From Spirochaetia bacterium (GTDB taxonomy: Bacteria > Spirochaetota > Spirochaetia > SZUA-6 > Bin103), in the NCBI GenBank assembly GCA_965203515.1, contig OZ241907.1:1714578-1778577 (forward strand): DNA of 64,000 nt, in the 5' to 3' direction. Below are positions 4,354 through 56,490 of this stretch, piece by piece. The first letter of the stretch is position 1; every line of letters begins with the position of its first letter. Position numbers and translations under genes: made by a program. A model generated the notes under the pieces. The model was given only the letters and a program-made list of their open reading frames with translations, ran no database searches and was not told where the DNA came from.

Positions 4354-5417
4354 GAGATTGCGCCGGGCGCCTGCGTGAGACGCTGGCCGTACTGGACGTC
4401 GGACACGGCTCCAGTGCCGTCCTCTTTTCCGGGGGCGACGTGGCGGTCTTCGATACGGGACCCGGCTCCGGCCTGCTCGAGTTTCTCAAAGAGCAGAACG
4501 TCAAGCATATCAAGACCGTCTTCGTTTCGCATGCGGACCGCGATCACATCGGCGGCCTGGTCGGTCTGCTGGCCGCGAATATCATCACAGTCGAGCGGGT
4601 CGTCCTCAATACCGACAGCTCGAAAGGCTCCGCCGCGTGGGATGACCTGCTCTACGAGCTCGATGCTCGGCATCGGGCCGGAACGACCAGGTTCGACACC
4701 ACGATCCGCGCAGGTGACAGCGAAGTCTTCGGGACGGTGACCGCGGCCGCGGCCGGCCCGAGTACGTATCTTACGGCAAGAGGACCCGGCAGTACAGACC
4801 GGTCCGGCAGGAGAATCACCAGTAACTCGATCAGTGCCGTGATCCGGCTCGCCGCCGACACCGGTCCGGTAGCACTCCTGACCGGTGACCTCGACATGAT
4901 CGGGCTCGATGCACTGCTGCACGAGGGAGGCGCCATAGATGCGCCGGTACTGGTGTTTCCTCATCATGGCGGAGGAGTAGGCGGCAGCAATGTCGGTGGT
5001 TACGTCACCAAGCTGGTCAAGCGCGTGCGCCCGTGTGTCGTGGTGTTCTCCATCGGTCGCCGGCGGAAGGGAACGCCCGATCCTGAGATAGTCCGTTACC
5101 TTCGGGGGGCGGCGCCGGCGGCACGCATTGTGTGCACGCAGTTGTCGCAGCACTGCGCGAAGGCGCGTCCGACGTTCGCACCGGCGCACTTGTCACCGGC
5201 GTTCGCGCTCGGTCGAAGTGACGGCGCCTGCTGTGGCGGCACGATTCTGATGCCGTTGCGTGATGCGCCCGGGATCACGCCGGACTCCGCCAATCACCTG
5301 GAATTCATCAGGAAAGCGGCTGAAACACCGTTGTGCATGGGATGGCCGATCCCCGCCGTAGAACGGCCGCTCAGGCCAAGTGCCGGGAGAAGAACCGGAC
5401 CCAGTTGCGGTGCATGA
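4350..5417 (+). CDS. MBL-fold metallo-hydrolase (ComEC/Rec2-like beta-lactamase fold), Cys-rich C-terminus
   Basis: VLDVGHGSSAVL...VFVSHADRDHIGGL (HxHxDH-like), PVLVFPHHGG. ATGA coupling to the upstream gene. C-terminal CTQLSQHCAK...GACCGG cysteine cluster. Confidence 0.6.
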   Translation: MRDCAGRLRETLAVLDVGHGSSAVLFSGGDVAVFDTGPGSGLLEFLKEQNVKHIKTVFVSHADRDHIGGLVGLLAANIITVERVVLNTDSSKGSAAWDDLLYELDARHRAGTTRFDTTIRAGDSEVFGTVTAAAAGPSTYLTARGPGSTDRSGRRITSNSISAVIRLAADTGPVALLTGDLDMIGLDALLHEGGAIDAPVLVFPHHGGGVGGSNVGGYVTKLVKRVRPCVVVFSIGRRRKGTPDPEIVRYLRGAAPAARIVCTQLSQHCAKARPTFAPAHLSPAFALGRSDGACCGGTILMPLRDAPGITPDSANHLEFIRKAAETPLCMGWPIPAVERPLRPSAGRRTGPSCGA

Positions 5418-6483
5418 CGTCGGTCACCTGTTCGTCGTCGTAGCCGCGGCGGGTCAGCACGTCGGCCAGCCGGCGGTAGTCGACCACGGTGTCGATCTCC
5501 GCCGGCGCGCCGGCGCGTCCGCCCTGGCCGTCGGTGTCCCCGCCGATGCCGGCGTGGCGCGCGTCGCCGGCGAGCTGACAGACGTGATCGACGTGGTCGG
5601 CAAGATCGTCGAGCGTGACGTCGGCCTTGCCGAACGGCCGTTGCAGCCCCTCGACGTTGGCCCAATCGATGCCGCCGCGGTACAGCATGGCGGTGTCCAT
5701 CGACACCCCGATCACGCCGTCCCGCTCGATGATCGCCCGCAGGATTGCGTCGGGGAACTGCCGCTCACCGGGTACGATCGCCCGGCAGTTCTGGTGCGTG
5801 GCGATCACCGGGCCGTCGAACCGGTCGAGCGCCTGCGTGATGGTCGCGTCGGAGGCATGCGTGGCATCCAGCACGATGCCCAGCCGCCGCATGTCCGCCA
5901 GCAGCCGGCCGGCCGGTGGAAACAGCCCGCCGTCGGTACCCGTGCCGGTGCCGTGTCCGTACGCGCTGGTGTCGTAGTGGGTCAGGCTGACGATGCGCAA
6001 GCCGGCCGCGTGGTACTCCTCCAGCGACTCCGTATCCAGGATCGGATCGGCGCCCTCCAGCCCCAGGATCACGCCCACCGGCAGGTCGTCGAAGCCGCTC
6101 CCCGCGCGCTCCGCATCCTCCCAGCTCCGCACGTGCGCGGCCAGGTCGGCCGCCGATTTCAGGACGCGGTAGCGCCCGCGCCGCTCCATGATCCGGTAAT
6201 AGGCGATCTGGCCCCAGGTCTCCGCGTAGGCCAGCTCGCCGGAGCGGTGCCCCCAGAGCTGCGCCCCCGGACGATGGATGCGCGCGGTCAGCTTGCCGAT
6301 GAAGGCGGCGATGCCGGCGCGCCGCTGCTCCGGGACCGACGCCATCAGTTCCGTCTGATAGCCCAGGTCCTCGCTCGCCATCCCCGCCGGCGGCGCGGAG
6401 CGCACCGCCTCGATCGGCTGGGTGAGGTCGGCGTTGAGCCGCGCCGCCACGTTGACCGGATAGTCGCCGTCGAAGATCAGCAT
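5371..6483 (-). CDS. membrane dipeptidase (peptidase family M19)
   Basis: Track ORF. VSLTHYDTSAYGHG, ATHQNCRAIVPGERQ and AMLYRGG resemble renal-dipeptidase family motifs. Convergent 47-nt overlap with the MBL gene end. Confidence 0.75.
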   Translation of the reverse strand: MLIFDGDYPVNVAARLNADLTQPIEAVRSAPPAGMASEDLGYQTELMASVPEQRRAGIAAFIGKLTARIHRPGAQLWGHRSGELAYAETWGQIAYYRIMERRGRYRVLKSAADLAAHVRSWEDAERAGSGFDDLPVGVILGLEGADPILDTESLEEYHAAGLRIVSLTHYDTSAYGHGTGTGTDGGLFPPAGRLLADMRRLGIVLDATHASDATITQALDRFDGPVIATHQNCRAIVPGERQFPDAILRAIIERDGVIGVSMDTAMLYRGGIDWANVEGLQRPFGKADVTLDDLADHVDHVCQLAGDARHAGIGGDTDGQGGRAGAPAEIDTVVDYRRLADVLTRRGYDDEQVTDVMHRNWVRFFSRHLA

Positions 6484-9878: not shown

Positions 9879-10931
9879 ATGGCATTCGAGTCACGAGTCT
9901 ACGCCCTGCGTATCGAGCCGCACCCCAACGCCGACCGCCTGGAGCTGGCGGCGATCGGCGGCTTCCGTTGCGTCGTCGGCAAGGACAGCTACGTCGACGG
10001 CGACCTGGCCGCGTACATCCCGGAAGGGGCGGTCTGTCCCGAATGGCTGATCGCGGAGCTGGGGCTGGAAGGCAAGCTGGCCGGCAGCAAGAAGAACCGC
10101 GTCAAGGCGGTGCAGCTCCGCGGCGCGCTTTCGCAGGGGTTGGTCTATCCGGTCCGCGACGGGATGATCCGCGGGCGGCAGGTCGCCGAAGGGGACGAAG
10201 TCACCGAGCTGCTGGAGCTGGTCAAGTACGAACCGCCGATCCCGATCTCCATGCAGGGCGAGGTGCGGTCCGCGCACGGCGCCACCCTCCACTACGACAT
10301 CGAGGACTTCAAGAAATACCCGGAGGAGTTCCGGGACGGGGACCCGGTGATGGTCACGGAGAAGCTGCACGGCACGTGGTGCTGCCTGGGCTGGCACGCC
10401 GACCACGGCCCGATCGTCACCTCCAAGGGTATGTCGGACAAGGGCATGGCGCTGCTGATCGACGACGCGAACAAGACCAATCTGTACGTGCGCACGTGGC
10501 GCGCGCATCAGGAGGCGTTCGAGTCGGCGCGCGCCCGCCTTGCCGGCGACGGCCGGCCGTTCTACGTCCTGGGCGAGGTGTACGGCCGCGGCGTGCAGGA
10601 CCTCCATTACGGGGAGCCCAACCCGGCGTTCCGGGTGTTCGATGCGTACCTGGGCGAACCGGGAACCGGCCGCTACCTGAACCCGGAGGAACTGGCGGAA
10701 TCGCTGAGCGATCTGTTTCCGCTGGTGCCGGAGCTCTATCGCGGCCCGTTCAGCCTGGCGAAGCTGCAGGAGCTCACCGACGGCGCCACCACGCTCGGCG
10801 GCGGCCACGTACGCGAAGGCGTGGTCGTGAGGCCGGCCATGGAGCGCGTGTCGCACGCCTGCGGACGGGTGATCCTGAAGAGCGTCTCCGGCAAGTACCT
10901 GACGCGCAAGGGCGGCACGGAGTTCAACTGA
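9879..10931 (+). CDS. RNA ligase family protein (Rnl2/PF09414-like nucleotidyltransferase, motif I KLHGT) with N-terminal tRNA-binding-like OB domain
   Basis: EKLHGTWC matches the KxHG adenylylation motif (T4 Rnl2 KIHGTN). The N-terminus MAFESRVYALRIEPHPNADRLELAAIGGFRCVVG resembles the CsaA/EMAP-type OB fold seen in DraRnl-like ligases. Confidence 0.5.
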   Translation: MAFESRVYALRIEPHPNADRLELAAIGGFRCVVGKDSYVDGDLAAYIPEGAVCPEWLIAELGLEGKLAGSKKNRVKAVQLRGALSQGLVYPVRDGMIRGRQVAEGDEVTELLELVKYEPPIPISMQGEVRSAHGATLHYDIEDFKKYPEEFRDGDPVMVTEKLHGTWCCLGWHADHGPIVTSKGMSDKGMALLIDDANKTNLYVRTWRAHQEAFESARARLAGDGRPFYVLGEVYGRGVQDLHYGEPNPAFRVFDAYLGEPGTGRYLNPEELAESLSDLFPLVPELYRGPFSLAKLQELTDGATTLGGGHVREGVVVRPAMERVSHACGRVILKSVSGKYLTRKGGTEFN

Positions 10932-10955: not shown

Positions 10956-12104
10956 TTACGACGCCTCGCCGGCGAGGCGCCGGATCAGGTCCGGGAGGCT
11001 GACGAAGCGGACGCTGAAACCCGGAAAGTCACGCACCCAGGAGCGTTCCGTGTCCGCAGTCACGACGTAGTTGGCGCCGGTGGGATAGCGGGCGCGGAAG
11101 GCGCGCAGGTTCCGGGGATCGAATCCGCCGGCGCGCCACTTGCACTCCACGGTCACCGGGGGCGCGGCGCGATCGTCGATCACGAAGTCGATCTCATGGC
11201 CGCGCTTGTCGCGCCAGTAGCAAAGCCGACGCCGTTGCAGGCGTCCGAGGTATTCGTTGAGCACGCAGTGCTCCCACAGGGAGCCGCGATCCTCGTCGCG
11301 CAGCCGGTTCCAGCCCATGAACAGGCTGACGAAGCCGGTATCGAAGCCGTAGACCTTGGGCGTCGCCACGATCTCCGTCGCGCGGCGCGTGCTGAAGGGC
11401 CGAACGATCTGCACGACGTGGGTATCTTCGAGCACCTGCAGATAGTTGACGATGGTGGCGCGGCTCACCTCGCACGAGGCGGCGTACCTGGTCGCCTCGA
11501 ACAACCCGCCGCTGGCGGCGAACAACAACTCCACGAAGCGCAGGAAGGACCAGCGCCGTTGCAGCCGGAAGTGCTCCTGGATGTCCCGCGCCCAGTAGGA
11601 GTCGATCCAGTCCTGAAACCCGCGCTCCGGAAACTCGGAAGCAAGGAAGAAGGGGGGCAGCCCGCCGTGCAGAAAGCGGTGATCGATGCCGCGCGGGCCG
11701 AACTCGTGCTCGTCCTGGAGCAGCATCGGCGTCATCCACAGATCGCGCTTGCGGTCGGTGAGCGTATCCCGAAATCGGCGCGACGCTCCCAGTGACGAGG
11801 AGCCGGTAGCGACGATCTGCGTATCGGGATGGTAATCCGCCGCGATCTTCAGCAGCTCGGACGGATTGGGCAGACGGTGTATCTCGTCCAGCACGACCCG
11901 CCGCGCACCGACGTCACGCAGGAAGCTCTCAGGGGACTCCAGCGCGCGGCGGGTGCTCGGCAGTTCGCAGTCGAGGTACTCGACGTCCGGCAGAGACTGA
12001 CACAGGACCGTCTTGCCGGCGCGGCGGACCCCCGACAGCCAGACGACCGACTTCTCGCGCCACAGCTTCTCTACGGCCGCGATCCAGTAGCTTCTCCGTA
12101 CCAT
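10956..12104 (-). CDS. AAA+ ATPase with DUF4143 (AAA_14 family), paralog 1
   Basis: GVRRAGKT Walker A, VVLDEIHRLPN Walker B. Paralogous to the gene at 42406..43734. Confidence 0.7.
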   Translation of the reverse strand: MVRRSYWIAAVEKLWREKSVVWLSGVRRAGKTVLCQSLPDVEYLDCELPSTRRALESPESFLRDVGARRVVLDEIHRLPNPSELLKIAADYHPDTQIVATGSSSLGASRRFRDTLTDRKRDLWMTPMLLQDEHEFGPRGIDHRFLHGGLPPFFLASEFPERGFQDWIDSYWARDIQEHFRLQRRWSFLRFVELLFAASGGLFEATRYAASCEVSRATIVNYLQVLEDTHVVQIVRPFSTRRATEIVATPKVYGFDTGFVSLFMGWNRLRDEDRGSLWEHCVLNEYLGRLQRRRLCYWRDKRGHEIDFVIDDRAAPPVTVECKWRAGGFDPRNLRAFRARYPTGANYVVTADTERSWVRDFPGFSVRFVSLPDLIRRLAGEAS

Positions 12105-12222: not shown

Positions 12223-13254
12223 TCAGCGCTCCCGATCTGACGCGTGGGTCTGTCGGCGGAGCAACTCGAACGCCTGCTGGCCGATGCCGGTAGCCTGCTC
12301 GATGATCGACCACTCGACGCCGGCGCGCAGAAAACTCTCGATGGTGGCCACCTGGCCTTCCTGGCGGCCCTCCTGGCGGCCTTCCTGGCGGCCCTCCTGG
12401 CGGCCTTCCTGACGGCCTTCCTGACGGCCTTCCTGACGGCCTTTCAGCACGCCTTCCTGGATCAACTGCTCCCCATACGTCTTCATATCCCCTCCTGGTC
12501 CCCGTACTTCCCGCCGCAGCGCCGCGCCGAACTCCCGCAACCTCTCATCATCCTGCGTGCGGAGCACGTACAACACCACCACCGCGAACCGTTCGCTCTG
12601 TCCCGCCCGGTCCAACTCTCCCATGAGCTGCACCGCCGTCTCCAGCGCCGCCCTCACCTCGCGGCGCGCCGCCGCCATCAGCGCAAGCTGTGCTATCCGG
12701 CCCAGCGTTTCGCCCTGTACCGCTCCCACCCCCATCTGCGACTGGTCCACCAGCAGGTGCTCGAACTGCGGCGTCCAGGGCCACCCTCTGACCGATTCCG
12801 CAAACAAGTCGCTGAACTGAGCCGCATGTCGCCAGTGGGACTCACCCTGATAGAACACCACCGGCACGATCGGCGGCAAGTCCGGCGTCTCCCCTGCTTC
12901 GTCAGAGCGCAAGAAATCATCCCAGATGCGGCAGCAGTACTTCAGCAGCCGGAAGCGCATCAATCGATCCGGCCTCGATTGGTGCTCGAACAGCAGATAG
13001 AGCCGCAGCGAACGCCGCGCGTCACCCGGCTCGGCGGCGCCCGGTCGCTGCTCGATGGCATACAGCAGGTCGGACTCGCTGGCGCGCAGGTCGTCGTCCA
13101 CATAGCTGTCGGGCATCAGCGTCAGGCTGGCCCAGTCCAGCGTACCGGCGAGCCACGACGGCACGTGGGCGCGCAGCAAGCCAGCCGCTTCGGCCGGCTC
13201 GGAGAACACCTTGCGAAACAGATGGTCGTGCGGCTGGTGCAGATCGCGTGTCAT
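12223..13254 (-). CDS. Rpn/YhgA-family recombination-promoting nuclease / putative transposase (PD-(D/E)XK), copy 1
   Basis: Start ATG 13252-13254 (MTRDLHQPHDHLFRKVF...). LYLLFEHQSRPDR and LLKYCCRIW are family motifs. C-terminal QEGR tandem repeat. Paralog at 58974..59933. Confidence 0.7.
   Translation of the reverse strand: MTRDLHQPHDHLFRKVFSEPAEAAGLLRAHVPSWLAGTLDWASLTLMPDSYVDDDLRASESDLLYAIEQRPGAAEPGDARRSLRLYLLFEHQSRPDRLMRFRLLKYCCRIWDDFLRSDEAGETPDLPPIVPVVFYQGESHWRHAAQFSDLFAESVRGWPWTPQFEHLLVDQSQMGVGAVQGETLGRIAQLALMAAARREVRAALETAVQLMGELDRAGQSERFAVVVLYVLRTQDDERLREFGAALRREVRGPGGDMKTYGEQLIQEGVLKGRQEGRQEGRQEGRQEGRQEGRQEGRQEGQVATIESFLRAGVEWSIIEQATGIGQQAFELLRRQTHASDRER
12354..12437. repeat. 12-nt tandem repeat GGCC(T/C)TCCTG(G/A)C x7 (encodes (RQEG)n on the minus strand)
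   Basis: Seven consecutive 12-nt units read directly from the sequence, inside the Rpn copy-1 coding region. Confidence 0.85.
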
Positions 13255-13343
13255 GCGTGGTGCCGCGCAGCATAGCATGGATCGAACGGACGCCGAAGCG
13301 CAAGTATCTTCGCCGGCAAGCGGCCGTCTGTGGCGCCGGCGCG

Positions 13344-14070
13344 TCATGCCCTGCGAGCGACGAGAATATAGCCAAAGACCAGACTGTCGACGCGCAGGAC
13401 CCGGCACGCAGGGGACTCGTTCAGATGATCCAGCACCACTCGCCAATCGAAGCCGAGGTGCGGCCCCCAGCCGTCGGCGTCCGGGTCCCGAAACACGGAG
13501 ATCGATTGGCCCGTGAGCAGGTGCCACACGTAGCGGGATTCGCTCTGATCGCGGAAGAAGCTCTCGTACGGCCTCCTTCGGAATACCTTCCTCGCACCGT
13601 ACTTGAGCAATCCGGGCAAGCCGATCTCGTTCGGCACCGAGATGAGCAGCGTGCCGCCGGGCTTGCACGAGGCGAGCAGCGTGTCGATAGCATTCGGGAC
13701 GTTGCCTACGTGCTCCAACGTCTCGAAGCAGGTGACGACGTCGAACAGACGCTCCCCGGGGGGGGGGGGGGGGGGGGGCGTTGAGATCGACGTAATCGAA
13801 CACGGCGTTGTCGATGTTGCGAGCCTTCGCCGCGGCCAGCAGATCGGACGAGTGATCGAAGCCGAACAGGCACATCGAACCGGCTTCGGGCAGCGCTCGC
13901 AACAGTTCTGCGAAGAAGAATGCGTTGGAGCACCCGAAGTCGGCGACGGCCGCCCGTACCGGTAACGAGAGCGAGCGCATGGTCTCGACGACCCGGCGCA
14001 GTCGGGCACGATGGAAGAAGCTGAACGGATGAAGTCCCTTGTAGGAGCTTTCGTGTACGACCACCGCCAT
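13344..14070 (-). pseudogene. class I SAM-dependent methyltransferase, frameshifted at a poly-C (poly-G on + strand) tract
   Basis: N-terminal part (VADFGCSNAFFFAELL motif I) is in the frame of track ORF 12223..14070. C-terminal part (FDVVTCFETLEHVGNVPNAIDTLLASCKPGGTLLISVPNE) is in the frame of ORF 13344..14117. The switch is at the 21-G run 13758-13778, which encodes poly-Pro in both frames. Confidence 0.6.
13758..13778. repeat. 21-nt G homopolymer inside a coding sequence
   Basis: Direct count: g at 13758-13778. Confidence 0.9.
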
Positions 14071-14074
14071 GATC

Positions 14075-15730
14075 CTACGATGAGTCCACCTTTCGCGAAA
14101 GATCGGAAGTGAGGCACTCCACCAGGGAGATGGCTGACAGTACGACGGCGGCCGCGAAACCGACGGTGACCTGATCGCCCGATAGGTGCTGACCGTAGTT
14201 ACCGACCGAATGCAGATGGTTCACTATGAGGCTGGTAGTTCTGGTGACATACGTGCTCTGGCGTTGGGCGCGCTCAGAGCCGGTTATGAGCCGCAGTATC
14301 CGGCACTCCCGGCCTGGGGAGTCGTGAGGAATCTTGCCTCGTTCGTCCGGCAGCCTCTCGATTCCTGCGTGCTTCCATTCGTCGAGCCATGCATCGGGTA
14401 GACGGCGGTCAGGTGGGAGCTCGGCGGTCCAGATCAGATGCAGCGCCCGATTGGCAATGCTCCTGATCCAGACGAGTGCACTCTCTGGAGCCGGGACGAG
14501 GTCGCGGATCGCCAAGCGCACGTAGTCGCAAAGGTCACTGTCCACGGATCCCTGCGACACTTGGTCGAGGCGCAGCTCAAGCAGCATCTGAACATGCGTC
14601 TCGAATTTGGCGGCCGTGCCCAGAAGACGGGTCAGGTCGGCAATGGCGGGTGCCTGATCCTGAGCGTAGCGCTGCATCAGGCGACAGGAACTGCGCAGTC
14701 GGTTCCTCGACTGTTGGCCGAACCCTCGCTCCTCCAGTGCTTGCCGCCGCGGCTGAGACAGCTCGGCCAGCGGTATTTCGTCGGCAGTCAGCGCGCCGAG
14801 ATCAGCACGCAATTCGCTGTCGCAATCATCCCACAATGCGTCGAGGAGCTGGCGCGGCCCGTCCAGCACCGCTTCCGCAGCATGATCTATTTCCGATTTG
14901 GAAAGACGTTGTCCGCGGTGTCCGGCCCACAGCCTCTGCAGGAGCGCGCAAACGAGCAAAGGCACCCTTCCTGTCCAGTTGGCTATCTCCTTCCGCACCG
15001 ACTCGTCCAACTCGCAGCCGGCGTCACGGAGCGGCTGCAGGAACGCTTCCAGATCACGGTCGTCGAGCGCGGCCACGCGCACCGGCGTATCGTAGAATAT
15101 CCCCCAGAAGTCCGAGGTCCGCGACTCCTCCGTCTTGCACAGCTCGCGCAACGGCCGCCGGCTGCCGGTGACCAGTCGCAGACTGGTCCTCTGCGCCAGC
15201 GCGCGCAGTTGGTCCCACAGGTTCCGCGTCAACCCGGTACCGGCAAGCGCATAGTCGAAGCCATCGAGCACCGCGAGCAGGCGCACGCCGTCCTTTTCGA
15301 GTTGGTCGAATATGATGCCCAGCACCTCATGCCTGGAAACTTCTTCGAAGTCGTCGAAATACCCCACAAGGTCTGGACAGACCCCCTGCAACGCCGCCTT
15401 GATCTCGTCCGCAAACCGCCGCATGAATTCGTGGTCCGAGGCCGGTACCCCGCGGCGGAGATCGACGTACGCAGCGGTGACATACTGCTCGACCCCGTCC
15501 CGGTAGGTGGCGGCGGCATGGTGCAGCAGGACGGACTTTCCGTAGTGCGCCGGCCCCACGACCGACACGTGATCCGGCGACGGTTTCCGCAGGTGCTTGT
15601 CGATGCGGCTCATGAGCGCTGCGCGGCCCAGCATGGGGGGGACCGAAGGTCCCAGGACTTGGTACGGGTCAGGGTCAGGCATGGCGTATGGCCTCCTGGC
15701 GGGCGCGCTCCACGAGGTCGTCGAAGTCAA
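14075..15730 (-). CDS. STAND-like P-loop NTPase (Arch_ATPase/AAA_16-like) with C-terminal helical domain
   Basis: VSVVGPAHYGKSVLL Walker A, RLLAVLDGFD Walker B, LVTGSRRPL sensor-like. Resembles the ATPase module at the C-terminus of the upstream giant gene. 4-nt gap to the downstream SAM-MTase. Confidence 0.55.
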   Translation of the reverse strand: MTSTTSWSAPARRPYAMPDPDPYQVLGPSVPPMLGRAALMSRIDKHLRKPSPDHVSVVGPAHYGKSVLLHHAAATYRDGVEQYVTAAYVDLRRGVPASDHEFMRRFADEIKAALQGVCPDLVGYFDDFEEVSRHEVLGIIFDQLEKDGVRLLAVLDGFDYALAGTGLTRNLWDQLRALAQRTSLRLVTGSRRPLRELCKTEESRTSDFWGIFYDTPVRVAALDDRDLEAFLQPLRDAGCELDESVRKEIANWTGRVPLLVCALLQRLWAGHRGQRLSKSEIDHAAEAVLDGPRQLLDALWDDCDSELRADLGALTADEIPLAELSQPRRQALEERGFGQQSRNRLRSSCRLMQRYAQDQAPAIADLTRLLGTAAKFETHVQMLLELRLDQVSQGSVDSDLCDYVRLAIRDLVPAPESALVWIRSIANRALHLIWTAELPPDRRLPDAWLDEWKHAGIERLPDERGKIPHDSPGRECRILRLITGSERAQRQSTYVTRTTSLIVNHLHSVGNYGQHLSGDQVTVGFAAAVVLSAISLVECLTSDLSRKVDSS

Positions 15731-18700
15731 CGTTCATCCGCAGCCAGTCGGCCATCAACGGGATGGCCAGTCGGTACGTGACCCCGCGGTTGGATTGGTC
15801 GATCTCGAGCAGCTCCAGTTCACGGAGCTCGGTAATGTCGTCAGCGAGAGCTTCGTCATCCCGGACCGGTACACGATATTCCTCGAATTTCAGGCCGATG
15901 AGATCGCGGTTGAAGGCGTCCGGGGCGTCCGCCATACGGTCGCTGAGCGCCAGTATCAGTCTGCGCCGTTCGCTGCCGGCGTAGCCCCACAGGGTCTGGA
16001 AGTGCTCGTTGTCCCGCACCATCTCGGTTGCGGCCCGGTCCACGAGGTCACCCGTGATGATTCGTTCGCTCCCCGCGGCGGCCTGGTCGAACACCCGGCT
16101 GCAGAGCGACTGGATGAGAAACGGATGGCGCGAGCACAGTGCTACCAGCTGGTCACGCGCCTGTGGCAGGTAGCGGATTCGACGCGCGACCGGTTCGGTG
16201 ACCAGCCGCCGGGCTTCCTCCTCCGGCAGCGCACTGACCCCGATCCGGTGGCCGAACCCGAACAGCGCCGACCAGTACTCTTCGCGCAGCCGCTTCAGCC
16301 TGCGGGAGCCGGTGAGGATCGCGCCCAGACCGGATTGGTGCTGCAACAGGTGACGAATGTTCTCGGGGACCTGCTGACTGGTAATACCGCCGTCGATACC
16401 ATCCTGGAGCTTGTCGAACTCGTCGAGCATGAGCAGGACCCGGCGCCGGCGCGGCTTGGCGGCCTCGATCGCCGTCGACAGGTACAACGCCAACGTCTCG
16501 TAGGGGTGATCGTCGGAGAACGCGCCGCGCAATGCGGCGAGGAAGGCCAACTTGAACGGTCGCCCCGACTCCGGGGCCGGCGCATCAGGAATCCAGGTTT
16601 CGATGCCGGCGTCGGCAAGGGCAATACCCGTCTGCCTCGCCAACAGCCTGAACACGTTGGACGTGGACATGCTGTCCATATCCTGGAACGAGCAGTAGAC
16701 GGGAACCCATCCGGGAAGCGCTTCCTCTTTCCGCAACTGCTGCAGGATCGACGTCTTGCCGGTACGCCGATTCCCTTCCAGCAGGATCACGTTGGCCTGC
16801 TCACCGCCGAGATGGCGCCTGATCTGATCCATGATGCCGTCGCGGCCGAAGAACATTTCGGCCCGGTCCACCGGAGGCCCGACGATGTAGGGACTGGCGT
16901 CGAGGTCGCCGGTAGCGGCGGCCTCATTGCCGGAGCGGACCGGCACGGAGACCTTCGTCCGGCCCTCTACGGGCGTGGCGTCGAGGCGGCGCGCCTGCCA
17001 CGCCACGTCGATATCCAGCGGCTGCGTATCGTCTTGCGCCCGGACGACAAGCGGAATCTCATGCCGCTGACCTTCGGCCAAGTAGGGCACTTCTCTCACT
17101 AACGTACGATCGGCCTGACTCACTAACGTGAGATCGGCCTGCCGCACGGTCACCCGCACCTTGCTCAGCGGCACCGGCGACAGGTTGGCAACCCGAAGCC
17201 GCACCTCAGCGACGGTGCCGGCCAGCACTTCCGCGGGTACGGTGATGTCGAGCCTGCCTCTGCGCTGCATGGCGTGGGCCTCATCCTCGACGAGACCCAC
17301 CAGCCCCCAAGTAACAGAACGCAGGCGCTCACCGAGCGGATCTTCGGCCCGGTCGAGGACGCCAAGCGCCTCGCGCAACTTCGCCACAGCGAATTCGAGA
17401 ACCACCAGGCGGCCTGCGCCTTCAGGAACCGAATCGAGATAGTCCAAGGAGGCAGCCGCCCTCCTCGCCGCCTCCAGCCATCTGTCGATCGCACCATCGC
17501 CGGCCGTCGGTGCGGCTGGGGGAGTATCGAGCGATCGTATCTCCGCCGCGAGCTTTGCAAGCATATCTATGCCGCGCGCGCCGTCAGAACGGCGCCCTGC
17601 CGCCAGACTCGCCGCAAGAGGTCCTTCCAGCCAGAGGGCGACCGGATGCCGCGCCATCCCGGAGAGCAGGCGGAAGAGCACGGCCAGCGCGTCTCCGCGC
17701 AGCTCGCCAAGTTCCTTGAGCACGGCATCCTGCACCGAGACAGGCGGCACCGGAACTTTCAACGCGCGGAGCACGGGAATCGACAGATGACGAATCGTCG
17801 ATCCGGTGGCGTGACCCGACAACCAGAACCAATACGCGGGTGAGCGCAACAGGGCGGCCAGGAATCGCGGCTTGACGATCCCTTCGTGCACGCGAACGAA
17901 CGCGATGGTCTCGTCGGCCATCACCTCATACTCGTGCTCGTGCTCGTTTTCCTCAACCAGAAAGATGCTGCCTACGTTGTCCGTCATCGGGACGAGCAGG
18001 TCGCCGCCACGAAGATATGCCCGTGGGTCAGGGTTACCCAACAACGAGCTGAAATCGAAGGGCCAGGTCTGCGGCCGGCGAATACGCACATCCGTCACGT
18101 CGGCGGAGCGGAGCAGATTCGGCTCGGGTGCGTCAAAAAAATCGTTTTCCACCCCAGGAAACACCTCTGCGACCTCGTCCAGACTTTTCACCTTCAGAGA
18201 AGGGTCTGCCTTGACGAGCCGCTCGATCTCGGCGTCCAGCCGCTCGCTTCCCGACTTCTTGGCGATCAACTCGTAGTCGCGGAGCGTGAGTTCGCGCACG
18301 GGGGCGGACCATGACTCGACACCCGGCGAAGCGTAACTCGCAGACGCCTGGCGGTGATCCCCGATCATCTCGGCGACGCCCCGCGCATCTTCCTGGGCCG
18401 CCTGCCATGCCATCGGTGAGACGGTCAGAAACCGTACGGCGTCACGCGGTTCATCGCGGGAAAACACGATAACGCTCATGGATATACCGGTGAACGGCTC
18501 GAACGAGCCGGCCGGAAGCGCGATCACATCCTGCACGCGGTATTCCGAAAGAAGCGCCTTCCTCAGAGGCAAGGAATCGGCATGGAACAGCGGCCGCTCC
18601 GGTAACGCGACTACGGCTCGTCCGCCGGGCCGCATGTTGGCCATCACGTGCTGCAGGAACAGCTCTTCGACGCGATAGCTGGGAAACCGGAAGCTATCGT

Positions 18701-19553
18701 CTTCGTCGTATAACTCGTCTTCGTCGCTCCACGGCGGGGAGGCGACGACGCAGTCGAAGACCGCCTCCGATCCGTCACTCGGCACTGCCTTTTTCAGCGC
18801 GTTACCGTACTCCAGCCCCGGGGGTTCGACCCCGGCCAACAACAGTCGGCACAGTGTGATAAGGTACGCGCGTTCCGCGACTTCGACGCCGGAAACCGCA
18901 GCCGGTCCGACATTCGATCGCGGTGATGACGGAAGCGCCGCGTTCAGCCGGCGCGATGCCCCAGCGAGCAGTTCCCCAAAGCCGAAGCACGGATCATAGA
19001 CGCTTTCACCGGGTTTGAGGTCGGCCAGATCCAGCATGAGATCGGCGACCGGCGCAGGCGTGATGAACTGGCCCAGGCGATCCGCGTGCCGTTTCACCAT
19101 GAACCGCAACGCGTCGTCGAATACACCCGTCGCACGCCGGCGCCCTTCCGACGTGCTCAAATCGAGAGCGAACAACCAGTCGATTACCCGACGCATCTCG
19201 GCGCCGGTAGAAGTTCTCAATATCACATTCGTCGCTAAATCGGAAAATCCATAAAAATCTTCGTCGATAAGATATCGATCTTGCATCCGAAACAGCCCGG
19301 CATCGACACGCTTCGCCGCCAGTATGGCATCCGACTTTGGGGGCCTCTTCCATCTCTTTTTCTCGACCAATTCATCTATATCATCGCCTGAATCGATCTG
19401 GCCTTCGGTATCGTCCGAACCGGCGTATCCGATGAACAGTCCGGCCAGCCCCCACACTGCGCTCACAGGATGCTTCCACTCTTCGATCAGCGTCCGCAGG
19501 TCGGAACGCACCTGTTCCAAGGCTGCTTGTTCGTGCTTCCCGTCATGGTTCAT
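15675..19553 (-). CDS. 1292-aa fusion protein: HsdM-like N6-adenine MTase + HsdS-like TRD + uncharacterised middle + C-terminal STAND/Arch_ATPase-like NTPase
   Basis: GQFITPAPVADLM (motif X), YDPCFGFGELL (motif I), FDCVVASPPW (motif IV variant). HLSIPVLRALKVPVPPVSVQDAVLKEL is an S-subunit TRD signature. C-terminal PYIVGPPVDRAEMFFGRDGI...VILLEGNRRTGKTSIL (Walker A), RRVLLMLDEFDKL (Walker B), ILTGSRRL. Overlaps the downstream NTPase gene by 56 nt. Confidence 0.6.
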   Translation of the reverse strand: MNHDGKHEQAALEQVRSDLRTLIEEWKHPVSAVWGLAGLFIGYAGSDDTEGQIDSGDDIDELVEKKRWKRPPKSDAILAAKRVDAGLFRMQDRYLIDEDFYGFSDLATNVILRTSTGAEMRRVIDWLFALDLSTSEGRRRATGVFDDALRFMVKRHADRLGQFITPAPVADLMLDLADLKPGESVYDPCFGFGELLAGASRRLNAALPSSPRSNVGPAAVSGVEVAERAYLITLCRLLLAGVEPPGLEYGNALKKAVPSDGSEAVFDCVVASPPWSDEDELYDEDDSFRFPSYRVEELFLQHVMANMRPGGRAVVALPERPLFHADSLPLRKALLSEYRVQDVIALPAGSFEPFTGISMSVIVFSRDEPRDAVRFLTVSPMAWQAAQEDARGVAEMIGDHRQASASYASPGVESWSAPVRELTLRDYELIAKKSGSERLDAEIERLVKADPSLKVKSLDEVAEVFPGVENDFFDAPEPNLLRSADVTDVRIRRPQTWPFDFSSLLGNPDPRAYLRGGDLLVPMTDNVGSIFLVEENEHEHEYEVMADETIAFVRVHEGIVKPRFLAALLRSPAYWFWLSGHATGSTIRHLSIPVLRALKVPVPPVSVQDAVLKELGELRGDALAVLFRLLSGMARHPVALWLEGPLAASLAAGRRSDGARGIDMLAKLAAEIRSLDTPPAAPTAGDGAIDRWLEAARRAAASLDYLDSVPEGAGRLVVLEFAVAKLREALGVLDRAEDPLGERLRSVTWGLVGLVEDEAHAMQRRGRLDITVPAEVLAGTVAEVRLRVANLSPVPLSKVRVTVRQADLTLVSQADRTLVREVPYLAEGQRHEIPLVVRAQDDTQPLDIDVAWQARRLDATPVEGRTKVSVPVRSGNEAAATGDLDASPYIVGPPVDRAEMFFGRDGIMDQIRRHLGGEQANVILLEGNRRTGKTSILQQLRKEEALPGWVPVYCSFQDMDSMSTSNVFRLLARQTGIALADAGIETWIPDAPAPESGRPFKLAFLAALRGAFSDDHPYETLALYLSTAIEAAKPRRRRVLLMLDEFDKLQDGIDGGITSQQVPENIRHLLQHQSGLGAILTGSRRLKRLREEYWSALFGFGHRIGVSALPEEEARRLVTEPVARRIRYLPQARDQLVALCSRHPFLIQSLCSRVFDQAAAGSERIITGDLVDRAATEMVRDNEHFQTLWGYAGSERRRLILALSDRMADAPDAFNRDLIGLKFEEYRVPVRDDEALADDITELRELELLEIDQSNRGVTYRLAIPLMADWLRMNVDFDDLVERARQEAIRHA

Positions 19554-19567
19554 GGCTATACCGTACG

Positions 19568-19583
19568 TAGCAGAAACCGTGCC
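19568..19583 (-). promoter_or_regulatory. sigma-54 (-24/-12) promoter TGGCACGGTTTCTGCT
   Basis: Minus-strand sequence matches TGGCACG-N4-TTGCW with GG and GC at canonical spacing. It lies 15 nt upstream of the giant ORF start (19553) and 2 nt downstream of the RtcR-like stop (19585-19587). Confidence 0.5.
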
Positions 19584-19584
19584 A

Positions 19585-21081
<1,497 letters not shown>

Positions 21082-48787: not shown

Positions 48788-51922
<3,135 letters not shown>

Positions 51923-51953
51923 CGCCCGTCCTCCCCTGTGACGATGACGAATC

Positions 51954-53021
51954 TCACCGTGCCGGCCCGCCGCTGATCACGTTCGCCTTCCAAAGTTGGC
52001 CCAGAGAGTACTCCTTTAGCCAGTCCTGCAGGCGATCCGGGTCCAGCCGCTCGAAGGCCGACTCGCCATCCCGGCGATCGACCACCACGATGTCTTCCGG
52101 CCGAAACTCGCTGACCAGGTCGGCGGATTGCGTGGAGACGATCACCTGCCGCGCTTCACTCGCCGACTGCAGCATCTCCGCCAGCAGCGTAAGCGCGAAC
52201 GGATGCAGCCCCAGTTCCGGCTCATCGATCAGAATCAGCCGCGGCTGCATCGCGGTCGGCTGCAGAAGCAGGGTGGCAAGGCACAGGAAGCGGAGCGTGC
52301 CGTCCGAAAGCTGAAGCGGTCCCAGCGGCGTATCGGCATCGTCGACGTGGTGCCATTCGAGCTCCATGCGCTCATCGACATCCCTGCGATAGACGAAGCC
52401 GCCGAAGAACGGCGCGGCCAGCCGCACGGCGTCGACGATCTCGCGGTGCTCGTGCGGATGGCGTTCATGGAGCAAGCGCAGGAATGGCCCCAGGTTGGCC
52501 CCGTCCGGCTTCAACCGCAGGTTGTCGCGCACCGCCTGCGGGCAGCGCATGCCCGCAACCTCACTGGTATCGTGAAAGTGATACACCCGCCAGTCCCGCA
52601 TCGCCGGCAGCACGTAAGCCGCAAAGTCGCCGCCCTCGATACTCGCCGCCTGCGCTTCCAGGTGGCCCGACCAAGTCGATCTTTCCGGAAAAACGTGCTC
52701 TCGCGCGAACGCCATTCCGTCCGCCACCGGCTCAAGCGAAAAGCCGTATCGGCGGCTGTTGCCGTTGAAGGACAACTCCACGTCCAGACCCGAAGTCCGC
52801 CGGCGACCGCCGAACAGCAGAGCGTCCGCTCTCCCCTCCCGCTTGACGAACAGTTGGAGTCTCTTCGCGGCAAGTTCGGACACCATCCGAAACAGACTCA
52901 TCAAGTTGCTCTTGCCCGCTCCGTTCGCTCCGACGAGGACATTCAGTCCGCGCAACTCGAAGTCCTCCAGCACCCGAATCGACTTGAAGCCGCGAACGGA
53001 CAGTCGGTCTATCGCAGCCAT
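51954..53021 (-). CDS. AAA_21/ABC-type ATPase (OLD/Abi-like NTPase domain only)
   Basis: [13 protein letters not shown] Walker [14 protein letters not shown] Walker B/D-loop. Internal ATG ([14 protein letters not shown]) chosen. Confidence 0.6.
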
Positions 53022-53207
53022 GTCGTGTCTCTCGCTTCGAGAAGCTGGGCGTCCCATACGCGAATGACGACCTTCGTCGCCGCGACCGTCTCGTGCATCA
53101 TCCTCATTCGCGCCACAGGTACCGACTCAGACTTCGGCGCCGAAGTCCCGCCCCGCCCACAGTCCGACTCTGCCCTCTCCCGCTGCCGGTCATCGCCGCT
53201 AGCGACT

Positions 53208-54323
53208 TCAGTTTCCAGCCTCGACGGAAATGATGCATGCGTTACGTAAGGAAAGACGTTGACGGTGTTGCTCTAGATCGCCTCTCATAACGACCGTTGA
53301 TCTCTGCCTATGGGCCTCCGTCAGTCGCTCGTAATCAGTTCTCTTGGCGTAAACCTTGACCGATTTCCATTGTCCGTCAATAGGCGCCCGCATGGTGACC
53401 ACACCGTCGCTCTCCCATTCCTCGCGATGCAGACGGTGTATCGGTCCGGTCAGAGATATGTCGGGGTGAGGCTCGCGCTCGCGAAACGACCGCGCTGCTT
53501 CCCGCAGGATCGGAGCGTCGGGGTTAGAGAATTCAACGATCTTTCCAGCCGACTTCATCGGCCGTGTACGAGCCCAGGTCATGTCTACATCAAGCGTCGG
53601 AAACGGACTGATCATCCTGTATAGCGCTTCGCACAGGTTCGCGCTAACCCCCTTGTCGACGACTCTCGCAAAGGCTTCTCCGTCACCTGCAACCGTGCTC
53701 TCCGTAGCGCTCCGGGCAGCGTCGAGAGCCTCGATCAGACGTGTTGTCATCCGTCGTTCGATGGGGGCGTCGAATTCCTCAGAGTCTCCGAACAAGGTCG
53801 GAATCGGTGGAGGTATCGAGATCACTAGTGCGACAACGAAACTTCCCTGTTCGGTCTGTCCCAGACGAACTCGGCTCAGAAGGTCGGCCGCCTCCTTGTT
53901 GGCGCCCGCGCGGTACAGTGCCTGCGGCTCACGCAACGAGCAGGCCGCCGCCAAGAGCATGTCACGCGCGCCATCGATGAGGTCGACGCCGTCGTTCACT
54001 GTCAGGCTGCCGTCATCGCTTCCGCCGGCTCTTACCCGCACGACATCACGGTTGGCGTTCACCAAATCGCGGTAGAGGGCGAGTTCGTCGCGTTCGGTTA
54101 CTCTCGTGAATATCTCGATCAGTTGGGCTACGACACTTGCGTAGTCACCTAAACGTTGCGTGCGTGGCAGGATGATCTCAGGCAGCCCCTCTGCGGCATA
54201 AACGTCGGAATGGGCGCCGTATCTCTCATTCGTCTTGGACCAACCCGCAGCCCGCGCGTAAGCCGAAAGCGCATCCGGCGAAATCGCCCGCAAAGCGTCG
54301 CGATCTCGAATATTCACCTTCAT
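53208..54323 (-). CDS. hypothetical protein (lower-GC, within R-M island)
   Basis: Track ORF. ATGA overlap with the upstream DUF4365 gene. Confidence 0.4.
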   Translation of the reverse strand: MKVNIRDRDALRAISPDALSAYARAAGWSKTNERYGAHSDVYAAEGLPEIILPRTQRLGDYASVVAQLIEIFTRVTERDELALYRDLVNANRDVVRVRAGGSDDGSLTVNDGVDLIDGARDMLLAAACSLREPQALYRAGANKEAADLLSRVRLGQTEQGSFVVALVISIPPPIPTLFGDSEEFDAPIERRMTTRLIEALDAARSATESTVAGDGEAFARVVDKGVSANLCEALYRMISPFPTLDVDMTWARTRPMKSAGKIVEFSNPDAPILREAARSFREREPHPDISLTGPIHRLHREEWESDGVVTMRAPIDGQWKSVKVYAKRTDYERLTEAHRQRSTVVMRGDLEQHRQRLSLRNACIISVEAGN

Positions 54324-54850
54324 CGGACGTTCCCTCCTCTCGATCGATCCATGATCAGACGCAAATTTTTGACGTCAAACACGTTCTCATTCGGAATCCG
54401 CACCGTGACAGAAGATCGGTTGTCGGTCTCATCCGCTCCCACCAAGCTCAGCCAGTAGGCACACCGCCTCAGAGCCAACTCGTCGGTCGTAACTTTAATC
54501 CATTGGTCCTCATCTCTGGGTAGATCGAGCACTACGAGCACGCGTGGTGTCTGGGTCTGAATGCGGAGCAGGTCGTAGTTGCGCCGTTTCAACTCAAAGC
54601 GGTAGTGACCATCGCCCACCGGATTCAGATTGACGGTCGCCTTCAACTGCAAGTCGATGGCCGGCCTCATCCGTCCGCCCGAATGAATTCGGAGATCGAC
54701 ACCGTCACGGTCGAAGTCGCAGTCTGCTGTCACGTACCCCGCACCCGCCGCCACGGCGCGCGCGTACACACGGGACAGCGCTTCTTCCCGATCCGCGGGC
54801 GTAAGCAAAGCATCCTTCACACGGCCTCTATATTCCACTGTCATCCACAC
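54320..54850 (-). CDS. DUF4365-like protein
   Basis: Size and context. Lower GC than surroundings. Confidence 0.4.
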   Translation of the reverse strand: MWMTVEYRGRVKDALLTPADREEALSRVYARAVAAGAGYVTADCDFDRDGVDLRIHSGGRMRPAIDLQLKATVNLNPVGDGHYRFELKRRNYDLLRIQTQTPRVLVVLDLPRDEDQWIKVTTDELALRRCAYWLSLVGADETDNRSSVTVRIPNENVFDVKNLRLIMDRSRGGNVR

Positions 54851-56490
54851 AGCTCCCCGGAAATCAGTTTCGGCAAGAGCGCGTCGAGCTGCGCCATCAG
54901 ATTACGGGATGCATTCTGGTTTGCCAGAATACCCTCCATGTACGGAGACACCAAGTCATCGAACATGCCCGCTACTTTCGTCGGAGGGATAATCGTCGTT
55001 GCGACTGTGAACGTGTCACGTGTTATCGTGTCGAAAATCGTACCATGGGTTCGGGTGGTAAGCTCCTTGATCGACATTCGCAGGTTCCAATAGGTGAATA
55101 GATCCGGGTACCCGTCACGTCCACGAATTCCATAACACGTCTGGTTCATTGCCATCGGGACCCCTAAGCATGCTAATTTGCCTACGGTACCTCGCGCCGT
55201 AATGATTGTCGTCCGAGCAGGAAGGATCCGAGTGGAACTATTGGCGACGCCCAGCGGTGATATGGTACGCTCGGTGTCGATAGCGAAAACGCCGTTGAAC
55301 GAAGGATCGTCCTTTGCGGTATACCAGGGAATATCACCATCCCAGTATTCCGGCACGGACGTTCGGGGAGTGCCTCCGTTGATGATCTCAACGATATTCG
55401 CCAAGGCTCCAATCTCCCAACCGTAAGGTACGTTCGCTCCGTTGTTCGACGCCACGAAGCGGTCAGGGAACAGGTCGGCGATATCTTTGGGCAGGCCGGT
55501 GTCGCGATCTTCTTGCTTGGCCCATACCGGCTCAAAATCGACAAACCACGACATGAACAGCGCTCGTGCCGTTGCATCCAGAGTCTCGTTCATGAGGCAG
55601 TATAGCTTAATTCTTTCGTCAAGTGGTTCAAGTACGCGGACAATGGCGCGCTGTACGTCGAGGGGCGGAACCGGTATCGATATGGATCGAAGATAAGAGA
55701 TCGGCTGCGCTATCGAGGGGACGCCGACCTGGGACGTGTTCGCGAGTAACTTGTGCCGACCTTCGGGTGTCTTGAAGTAGTACGCCACGAACTGCGGGAG
55801 CACCTGACGTCGATCACAGCGCATGTAGAACTGGCTTTGAGAAATGACGTAACGATCGTAGATTGAATTCTCCGGGACATAGGCGACCTGGCCGATGGTA
55901 CCTCGATGAGTGAATACTACGTCGCCTCGTGCTACGTTCGCGTTCCGCAGCCGCTCTGCATGTTCTTCAGTGATGAAGTTGAATCCCGGTCTGTCATCGA
56001 CCATCATTCCGTGGAGATGCTGGCCGCTGATTATCGGTACGCCCGTTGGTACGAACGTGTTCACGCGAATGGATGACCCGAAAGGACCCATCGCGACCTT
56101 CTCGGCGATCTCCTCAATGCGCTTCTCTTGCCACTTCACCCGCCGAGACCGTTCCTTTTCTATAAGAGCCACGTAGTCCCTTTCAATGCGGGAATGAAAG
56201 CTCTCCGGCAAGCGTGCCCAGTCGTGCGCTTCAACCAGGAACGGAACCGTGGAATCGCGCAGTGCTTCCTCGAAATCGGCCAGCCGCGTAATGTCGATCT
56301 TGGCGAGGCCGGGGCCGCGCAGCACGAGGTCGAGGTCGCTGCCGTCGTGGCTCTCGCCGTTCACGCGGCTGCCGTAGGCCCACACTTCCACCTCGGGCAG
56401 GTGCTCCTGCAGCAGCGCTTCGAGCATGGCGCGATGGCGAGCCGACAGATGCAGCGTGCCGGCGGGCCGCTCACCCGGTGCGTCAGGCAT
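54841..56490 (-). CDS. hsdS: in-frame fusion of minimal nucleotidyltransferase (MNT antitoxin-like) domain and type I R-M specificity subunit
   Basis: ATG 56488-56490. AYGSRVNGESHDGSDLDLVL (MNT GSx9-11DxD), then with no intervening stop KVAMGPFGSS...two TRDs...KLISGELCG (HsdS). Track ORF 54841..56721. Confidence 0.55.
   Translation of the reverse strand: MPDAPGERPAGTLHLSARHRAMLEALLQEHLPEVEVWAYGSRVNGESHDGSDLDLVLRGPGLAKIDITRLADFEEALRDSTVPFLVEAHDWARLPESFHSRIERDYVALIEKERSRRVKWQEKRIEEIAEKVAMGPFGSSIRVNTFVPTGVPIISGQHLHGMMVDDRPGFNFITEEHAERLRNANVARGDVVFTHRGTIGQVAYVPENSIYDRYVISQSQFYMRCDRRQVLPQFVAYYFKTPEGRHKLLANTSQVGVPSIAQPISYLRSISIPVPPLDVQRAIVRVLEPLDERIKLYCLMNETLDATARALFMSWFVDFEPVWAKQEDRDTGLPKDIADLFPDRFVASNNGANVPYGWEIGALANIVEIINGGTPRTSVPEYWDGDIPWYTAKDDPSFNGVFAIDTERTISPLGVANSSTRILPARTTIITARGTVGKLACLGVPMAMNQTCYGIRGRDGYPDLFTYWNLRMSIKELTTRTHGTIFDTITRDTFTVATTIIPPTKVAGMFDDLVSPYMEGILANQNASRNLMAQLDALLPKLISGELCG

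Follow-up and report, generated by a model that had tools for sequence, protein, structure and literature searches.

A methylase-TRD-ATPase fusion and its partner ATPase look like an inducible phage-defence module rather than a restriction-modification enzyme

In PrrC, a nucleoside triphosphatase (NTPase) is joined to a HEPN domain. Ronin pairs an HsdM-HsdS decoy with the toxin RonA, a 61-aa membrane protein, and acts independently of methylation (bioRxiv 10.1101/2023.04.06.535777). CoCoNuTs of types II and III form superoperons in which an RtcR-like regulator heads a co-directional operon that may include type I restriction-modification (R-M) genes and ends in a HEPN module, and a feedback through RNA ends bearing cyclic phosphates has been proposed for them (PMC11090510). 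Here we compare with these systems a locus found in 64,000 nucleotides of DNA from a Spirochaetia bacterium (GenBank assembly GCA_965203515.1, contig OZ241907.1, positions 1,714,578 to 1,778,577; the whole stretch is referred to below as the window). The locus encodes a 1292-aa fusion protein, here called MTS, and a partner ATPase, ATP2, and the pair looks like an inducible sensor/effector module of phage defence, not a restriction-modification enzyme.

The gene for MTS starts with ATG and runs through 1292 codons without interruption of the frame. Its product combines an HsdM-like methylase fold, one HsdS-type target recognition domain (TRD), a helical bundle, an Ig-like beta-sandwich and an ATPase of the ORC/STAND type, in that order:

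15675..19553, minus strand: MTS, the 1292-aa fusion protein (open reading frame [ORF], domain matches, homologues)
18234..19223, minus strand: HsdM-like gamma-class methylase fold, aa ~111-440 (Pfam, PADLOC, motif census, dN/dS)
17694..18233, minus strand: single HsdS-type TRD and junction of TRD and conserved region (CR), aa ~441-620 (PADLOC Specificity_I)
17259..17693, minus strand: helical bundle linker, aa ~621-765 (AlphaFold2 model m51380f1adc53, predicted local distance difference test [pLDDT] mostly 82-93)
16929..17258, minus strand: Ig-like beta-sandwich, aa ~766-875 (AlphaFold2 model, Foldseek)
15678..16916, minus strand: ORC/Cdc6-STAND-type ATPase with helical and winged-helix parts, aa 880-1292 (Pfam AAA_16/AAA_22/ATPase_2/nSTAND6)

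An earlier note on this DNA had read a methylase, a single TRD and a STAND-like NTPase in one protein from the letters alone, and that reading is borne out by the frame, the motifs, the family matches and the conservation of the whole. The motifs GQFITPAPV, YDPCFGFGELL (motif I), SPPW, GNRRTGKTS, LLMLDEFD and TGSRRL were all verified, and the TRD/CR junction reads HLSIPVLRALKVPVPPVSVQDAVLKEL. Pfam N6_Mtase covers aa 150-379 (E 2.4e-27), the PADLOC models for type I methyltransferase and type I specificity subunit cover aa 98-434 (E 3.2e-43) and aa 448-619 (best E 5.4e-12), and AAA_16 and AAA_22 match aa 901-1088 (E 3e-9 and 9e-8), together with ATPase_2 and, weakly, nSTAND6.

Among 5.8 billion proteins searched there were 304 homologues; the 120 best are 1091-1512 aa long and share an identical Pfam combination at identities down to 48%. 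When the ATPase module alone was searched exhaustively with HMMER, 359 cluster representatives (50% identity) were recovered at E<=1e-30; among the best 150 of these, 110 of the 111 long proteins (>=1100 aa) carry the methylase N-terminus, indicating that the fusion is canonical in this family of ATPases. When GTDB species were scanned with an alignment, one genome for each, 99 proved to be carriers, complete chromosomes and a plasmid included, where a scan with the single sequence had given none. Carriers include Acidobacteriota, Gemmatimonadota, Planctomycetota, Cyanobacteria (Calothrix, Nostoc), Desulfobacterota and Myxococcota, as well as gamma- and betaproteobacteria (Pseudomonas, Variovorax, Cupriavidus, Shewanella, Marinomonas, Alteromonas and a metagenome-assembled genome labelled Klebsiella). 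The family spans at least 110 clusters at 50% identity and about ten phyla. The same architecture, for which a database search had been proposed, is therefore widely conserved. That separate M, S and ATPase genes had been joined by an assembly chimera or an undetected frameshift, a danger raised in the earlier note, is refuted by this conservation and retains virtually no probability: the full-length fusion recurs in more than 110 independent clusters and in the 99 species genomes, the frame is continuous, and an independent metagenome scaffold carries a 99%-identical MTS and agrees with this locus in gene order and gene calls. No evidence in support of a chimera was found, yet at one locus (L075) the methylase is split from the rest (HsdM-like protein of 749 aa, TRD-ATPase of 812 aa), and natural fission or fusion is thus possible.

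The methylase fold keeps residues that normally hold S-adenosylmethionine (SAM). The SAM-binding motif I of HsdM (D/E-x-F-x-G-x-G) is present as YDPCFGFG, its residues Y186, D187, P188 and G193 are invariant in 20 homologues, and a regular expression detected it in 60 of 78 locus ORFs; the SAM-holding acidic residues of motifs II/III are likewise conserved, and PPW is invariant within the clade of the window's protein. The catalytic motif IV is degenerate. It reads SPPW in the window (aa 272-275, 18729-18740), without the Asn/Asp of (N/D)PP(Y/F/W), and in homologues P0001-P0120 it is AAPPW, ATPPW, AVPPW or ASPPW, with Asn or Asp in none, whereas the genuine HsdM genes of the same loci have (S/A/C)NPP(Y/F) in 29 of 34 cases. 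The earlier note had asked whether the catalytic residues are intact, and across the clade the answer is negative: motif IV is xPPW where neighbouring HsdM proteins have NPPY/F. Distant branches of MTS keep ANPPW, SNPPW or DPPW, others keep Asn/Asp and have lost the aromatic residue (ANPPI, ANPPV, ADPPI), and others again have AQPPV or AHPPV. The domain is under purifying selection, yet its catalytic position varies between A, V, T, S and H, which suggests that the fold and its binding of SAM or nucleic acid have been kept while methyl transfer has not been selected, and the methylase domain of MTS is, to judge from these sequences, probably non-catalytic. Loss of the Asn in motif IV, as in M.TaqI and EcoKI mutants, severely reduces activity, which need not vanish.

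Constraint is distributed unevenly along the protein. Mean pairwise identity is 71-75% in the ATPase module, 53% in the methylase fold and 30% in the first 110 residues; the N-terminal half of the TRD is indel-rich and fast-evolving (40% mean identity, 21% gapped positions). Among close pairs of MTS, the ratio of nonsynonymous to synonymous substitution (dN/dS) rises from ~0.25 in the ATPase through 0.33-0.39 in the methylase fold to 0.73-1.05 in the TRD. Divergence at synonymous sites (dS) itself varies up to five-fold between modules of a single pair, which points to recombination between modules; in L010, L014, L016 and L059 the gap between the methylase and ATPase parts is about five-fold (0.19 vs 1.11 for L010 against L014), indicating module shuffling. 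Only one TRD-sized match was found in MTS, aa 448-619 aligning to positions 191-363 of the 392 of the model, so that the two TRDs and two helical regions of an HsdS are not present. The possibility that this TRD shares its specificity with the neighbouring HsdS was tried and rejected: identity is ~22-30% throughout, with cognate HsdS proteins no closer than non-cognate ones, and the cognate HsdS ranked first in 1 of 29 loci.

The region between TRD and ATPase (~aa 640-950) had been suspected of hiding an effector, a nuclease or a beta-sandwich. An AlphaFold2 model of aa 615-900, built on a 32-sequence alignment (pLDDT 79), shows a helical bundle (aa ~617-765) and, after it, a sandwich of seven to eight strands (aa ~768-870). 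Foldseek against the PDB matched the sandwich to the MG domain of complement C3c (E 2.7e-5), CARDB (3idu), TRAP-beta, arrestin and Kir C-terminal domains, a generic Ig-like resemblance only, and gave no specific fold match for the helical bundle. No nuclease was matched, and a nuclease or other effector hidden in this region is ruled out by the model and the Foldseek search; of the earlier suspicions it is the beta-sandwich that was found. The ATPase that follows has the Walker A motif GNRRTGKTS (16749-16775) and the Walker B motif LLMLDEFD, and with its nucleotide-binding, helical and winged-helix parts it is, as is the corresponding part of ATP2, a STAND/ORC-Cdc6-like NTPase. MTS ends ~90 aa past the winged helix, without a C-terminal sensor of TPR, WD40 or LRR repeats.

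The second gene of the module follows directly:

14075..15682, minus strand: ATP2, the 535-aa partner, with STAND/ORC-like ATPase, helical/winged-helix part and C-terminal HEPN-fold domain
14084..14614, minus strand: HEPN-fold helical domain of ATP2, aa ~357-533

The two genes are coupled as an operon, since the ATG of ATP2, the Met also used in independent gene calling of the 535-aa protein, overlaps the stop codon of MTS by 8 nt (ATGCCTGA), and the same overlap occurs in Variovorax and on an Acinetobacter plasmid. A homologue of ATP2 lies directly downstream of MTS in 79 of 80 loci, and all-against-all clustering of neighbouring ORFs left it as the sole universally conserved neighbour. ATP2 has the Walker A motif GPAHYGKS and the NACHT-like Walker B LAVLDGFD; the Walker residues are invariant in both proteins, both ATPases appear to be active, and DGFD of ATP2 and DEFD of MTS resemble the NACHT pattern D-G-x-D-E. 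The two ATPases are paralogues, because in a profile-profile comparison (hhalign) aa 6-302 of ATP2 align to aa 885-1205 of MTS with a probability of 95.8% and an E of 7e-9; BLASTP between the two modules is marginal (E 0.001). Their structural neighbours include NB-ARC resistosomes, CED-4, MalT and RdrA, the closest solved structures being archaeal PF01637 ATPases and ORC/Cdc6, not NACHT. The C-terminal domain of ATP2 has the four-helix HEPN fold and, conserved within it, the motif GNYGQH (14186-14203), whose His is invariant. The Arg of the HEPN motif R-x4-6-H occurs as R-N-x3-H in ATP2 of L049, L063, L067, L069, L072 and L075 and within RDFGVH in L061; it is found only where MTS keeps the Asn/Asp of motif IV (4 of 10 such loci vs 0 of 39, a count not corrected for relatedness). 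ATP2 of the window matched no PADLOC family, and ATP2 of Variovorax gave only a marginal match to mad8.

Upstream of MTS lie a regulator gene and a promoter:

19585..21081, minus strand: RtcR-like enhancer-binding protein (EBP) with CARF, sigma-54 AAA+ and HTH_8 domains, 498 aa (PADLOC, Pfam)
19569..19584, minus strand: sigma-54 (-24/-12) promoter TGGCACGGTTTCTGCT, in the 31 nt that separate the EBP stop from the MTS ATG

The EBP matches the PADLOC model RtcR_PspF2--CARF_AAA_HTH over aa 4-496 (E 1.7e-197) and Pfam Sigma54_activat (E 6.5e-71) plus HTH_8; against NCBIfam RtcR it scores 351 bits, under the equivalog cutoff of 650. The architecture of the regulator and the promoter are thus those of an RtcR regulon, with MTS-ATP2 as the driven genes instead of rtcAB. 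The promoter TGGCACGGTTTCTGCT is one mismatch from TGGCAC-N5-TTGCW and predicts a leader of ~5 nt. tblastn places an EBP upstream of the module in 48 of the 80 related loci, ORF clustering in 43, and a sigma-54 element follows the EBP gene in 27 of these 43, against a chance expectation of 0.0095 per region; in most of the 27 the element starts at or a few nt from the EBP stop, whether hsdR or MTS comes next. From the position of the element and its excess over chance, the module very probably depends on sigma-54 and is turned on by the signal, whatever it is, that the CARF domain perceives.

What else stands upstream varies. The EBP alone, as in the window, is found at 19 loci, EBP-hsdR-hsdM-hsdS at ~20, hsdRMS without EBP at ~8 and neither at ~22, and in about 40% of loci hsdR-hsdM-hsdS stands immediately before the pair. 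Variovorax shows the order EBP, HsdR (with an EcoEI-type C-terminus), HsdM, HsdS, MTS and ATP2, with overlapping stop and start codons; in Variovorax paradoxus (L070) hsdS and MTS overlap by 4 nt, and an Nmad3 gene (15220-16071 of that locus), not conserved elsewhere, stands after ATP2. Upstream genes of the loci with neither EBP nor hsdRMS include those for McrBC, GmrSD, a PLD nuclease and dynamin-like GTPases, which marks them as defence islands. Among ORFs of >=110 aa, conserved neighbour clusters were limited to ATP2, EBP and hsdRMS; no ronA-like toxin gene was seen, at a size limit above the 61 aa of such a gene and without a search aimed at one. The window's own locus is EBP-MTS-ATP2 only, so that MTS lacks the hsdS/hsdR operon expected of an HsdM, and a type I locus at a distance of 30 kb is unrelated to it. 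MTS is also present on a clinical Acinetobacter ursingii plasmid, where its only annotation is 'N-6 DNA methylase', beside an 'ATP-binding protein'. On this 317-kb carbapenemase plasmid (pRIVM0002_IMP-4; L081, 6074-13839) hsdR stands directly before MTS (AHPPV) and ATP2, and hsdM and hsdS are not listed as separate genes; upstream is a gene for a WYL-domain protein, PLSDB tabulates the genes incompletely, and the 1.5 kb at 4586-6073 are unannotated and hold no long ORF. The sensor module is exchangeable: in rare relatives, namely the genomes L052 (7403-11242) and L053 (7337-11227) and the cluster representative P0244, a DEAD/DEAH helicase takes the place of the methylase-TRD part on the same ATPase (65% identity), with an ATP2 homologue next to it. 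In the window, G+C is 0.61-0.65 at 12-20 kb vs ~0.71, and G+C at third codon positions is 0.75 for MTS and its downstream neighbour vs 0.85-0.94 in flanking genes, which fits acquired DNA; no tRNA genes were found in the window as island borders.

The reading we favour, if tentatively and at somewhat less than an even chance, is that MTS and ATP2 form a conserved defence module of two genes in which MTS acts as sensor subunit, with a HEPN effector and an abortive outcome. MTS, derived from a type I HsdM and half an HsdS, would bind a specific nucleic-acid target without methylating it, and binding would license ATP-dependent co-assembly of its ATPase with the paralogous ATP2. Assembly could bring the HEPN-fold domains of ATP2 together and lead to RNA cleavage, which would arrest the infected cell (abortive infection), and RNA ends with 2',3'-cyclic phosphates may then feed back on the CARF regulator. 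The earlier suggestion of recognition coupled to NTP-dependent oligomerisation is retained as the most reasonable framework. Several points weigh against the sensor reading. The Arg of R-x4-6-H in ATP2 is Gly in the window and most loci (GNYGQH/GDFGQH), making RNase activity uncertain in this clade, and sequence profiles do not confirm the HEPN assignment, the Pfam values being marginal (HEPN_Swt1 0.094, DUF4145 0.13). The EBP is absent from 32 of the 80 loci. Some methylases tolerate substitutions in motif IV, and Ser occurs there in the SPP(Y/F) of N4-cytosine methylases. The MTS TRD is unrelated to neighbouring HsdS TRDs, so that MTS does not simply read a site methylated by a companion R-M system; and if the TRD reads a DNA sequence, the host chromosome would contain it too, which leaves no account of how self is told from non-self unless expression gating, DNA modification state or abortive logic provides one.

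A catalytically dead HsdM-HsdS mimic might guard type I R-M by baiting phage anti-restriction proteins (the DNA mimics Ocr/ArdA, or Stp-like peptides), which would trigger the ATPases and HEPN, as in the logic of PrrC/EcoprrI and Ronin. Such a decoy would suit the frequent position of the pair behind hsdR-hsdM-hsdS, with the overlap of hsdS and MTS in L070, the hsdR-MTS-ATP2 order of the Acinetobacter plasmid, the decay of the catalytic motif within a retained fold and SAM motif, and the NTPase-HEPN layout that ATP2 has in common with PrrC; Ronin HsdMS offers a precedent as a methylation-independent decoy (bioRxiv 10.1101/2023.04.06.535777). Though the main rival as regards the trigger, we regard it as unlikely, because a DNA-mimic bait has no obvious need for a fast-diversifying TRD, the same ATPase/ATP2 chassis occurs with a DEAD helicase that is no bait for anti-R-M proteins, and roughly half of the loci, including that of the window, are without an adjacent type I system. 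A further reading is that MTS does methylate DNA, with an unusual motif IV and perhaps altered chemistry, in a modification-restriction scheme of the BREX or type ISP style in which MTS marks self and ATP2, or HsdR where there is one, attacks what is unmarked. The conserved motif I and acidic motifs II/III, the PPW invariant in the clade, the NPPW/DPPW kept in distant branches and the likeness of the window's Ser to N4-cytosine SPP(Y/F) are all compatible with activity; a variable TRD is typical of R-M specificity, and on the Acinetobacter plasmid hsdR directly precedes MTS with no separate hsdM/hsdS. This is improbable in our estimate: the catalytic residue is inconsistent (A, V, T, S, H) and other branches lose the aromatic residue (NPPI, NPPV, AHPPV), so that catalysis does not appear to be selected, a sigma-54/CARF-inducible methylase could not protect the chromosome continuously, and the fold of ATP2 is of RNase rather than DNase type.

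A more specific possibility, which we consider quite improbable, is that the methylase fold has turned from writer to reader: with small or hydrophobic residues in place of the catalytic Asn and the stacking residue of PPW retained, an adenine in a TRD-specified sequence would be flipped out and its modification state tested (e.g. for foreign N6-methyladenine), and a hetero-oligomer of the two paralogous ATPases, a 'resistosome', would then activate the HEPN effector. If so, it would be a DNA sensor specific for both sequence and epigenetic state, feeding an NLR-like switch under CARF/sigma-54 induction. Should the broader sensor reading be true, an NLR/STAND-like immune ATPase would have taken over R-M parts (HsdM and half an HsdS) for recognition, and a bacterial pair of sensor-subunit and effector-subunit ATPases would parallel the sensor/helper NLR pairs of plants. 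MTS-ATP2 would also join CoCoNuTs as a second kind of defence cargo that an RtcR-like CARF/sigma-54 regulator controls. The family provides a natural series, from active-looking versions (NPPW/RNxxxH) through degenerate ones (xPPW/GNxxxH) to those in which a helicase has been swapped in. The label 'N-6 DNA methylase' that MTS bears in current genome annotation probably misleads inventories of methylomes and R-M systems.

On its downstream side the operon converges on an RNA ligase gene (9879-10931, plus strand; PF09414 and PHA02142 OB-fold), which may be functionally linked through repair of RNA after HEPN cleavage. The ligase flank is 86-89% identical in L001, L002, L008, L010, L014, L016 and L059 and the EBP, where kept, 76-85%; for MTS of these genomes, by contrast, identity is no more than ~50-55%, and for ATP2, where full-length, ~58-69%. 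The cassette between RtcR-like regulator and RNA ligase is therefore hypervariable. Directly after ATP2 lies a gene of the Rpn family (Transposase_31, PD-(D/E)xK; 12223-14070, minus strand) with a 278-aa Arg-rich N-terminal extension, a fragment like a class I SAM methyltransferase and (QEGR)x7 near its C-terminus, which looks like a fused or frameshifted remnant. Between it and the RNA ligase is an ATPase with AAA_14 and DUF4143 (10956-12104, minus strand), weak homologues of which (26-29%) follow ATP2 in six other loci. A second defence island (48788-61754, minus strand), with G+C of 0.56-0.62 at 52-58 kb, contains a type I R-M system of another family. Its HsdR (48788-51922, with a T1RH-like C-terminus) and HsdM (60090-61754) are separated by an AAA_21 (AbiEii/OLD-like) ATPase (51954-53057), an ORF (53208-54323), a nucleotidyltransferase-HsdS fusion (54841-56721), two further ORFs, an N6_N4 methylase (58028-58930) and an Rpn/Transposase_31 gene (58974-59933).

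A match of the architecture to a characterised family, which the earlier note had named as a possible outcome, was found neither in Pfam, NCBIfam 20.0 and PADLOC 2.0 nor in the literature that could be searched, and none of the three databases holds a dedicated model for MTS. No description of the MTS-ATP2 pair, its RtcR and type I R-M link or the combination of N6_Mtase with AAA_16 was found in the searchable literature, nor was the pair mentioned in the available part of the CoCoNuT paper (PMC11090510). Membership of MADS was rejected (NCBIfam MAD2 gives 32 bits vs a cutoff of 720, and mad1-8 genes are not among the conserved neighbours), and no PADLOC or NCBIfam model for MADS, DS8, PrrC or BREX reached its threshold; the PADLOC models of PrrC and RloC matched no protein of the module. 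By its defining features the system is neither an HsdM nor an HsdS, nor a type IIG/ISP enzyme, PrrC, MADS or a classical STAND system. MTS has the gamma-class methylase fold, the single TRD and the helical spacer in one polypeptide in common with type IIG/IIL/ISP enzymes and BREX PglX; it differs in its non-canonical motif IV, and Pfam and PADLOC gave neither a nuclease nor a superfamily 2 translocase domain. PglZ, BrxC and other BREX genes were absent nearby according to Pfam and the neighbour clusters. The CoCoNuT superoperons have the same RtcR-like CARF-sigma54-HTH regulator at the head of the operon, and the terminal module here is MTS-ATP2 instead of McrBC-derived CnuB/C.

By analogy, MTS-ATP2 would work most like PrrC/EcoprrI, Ronin and the STAND/NLR switches. 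PrrC/EcoprrI and RloC also have an NTPase with a C-terminal HEPN-type domain in or near hsdRMS and a second-line abortive logic with an HsdM/HsdS-type partner, whereas the NTPase of ATP2 is ORC/STAND-like, not ABC-like, its partner MTS is catalytically degenerate and brings its own paralogous ATPase, and the HEPN Arg is absent in the clade. Like Ronin, the module would use an R-M-derived methylase/specificity unit as a methylation-independent sensor with no need for hsdR; unlike Ronin, it has M and S fused to an ATPase and an ATPase-HEPN protein as its candidate effector, and MTS has lost the Asn that Ronin HsdM keeps in NPPF. With the antiviral STAND/NLR ATPases (Avs, bNACHT, RADAR RdrA) and the sensor/helper NLR pairs of plants it shares the P-loop NTPase followed by helical and winged-helix parts and the use of two paralogous ATPases, one bearing a recognition module and the other an effector-type module; it differs from them in that the recognition module is an N-terminal methylase-TRD rather than a C-terminal repeat sensor, and in that ATP2 ends in a HEPN fold.

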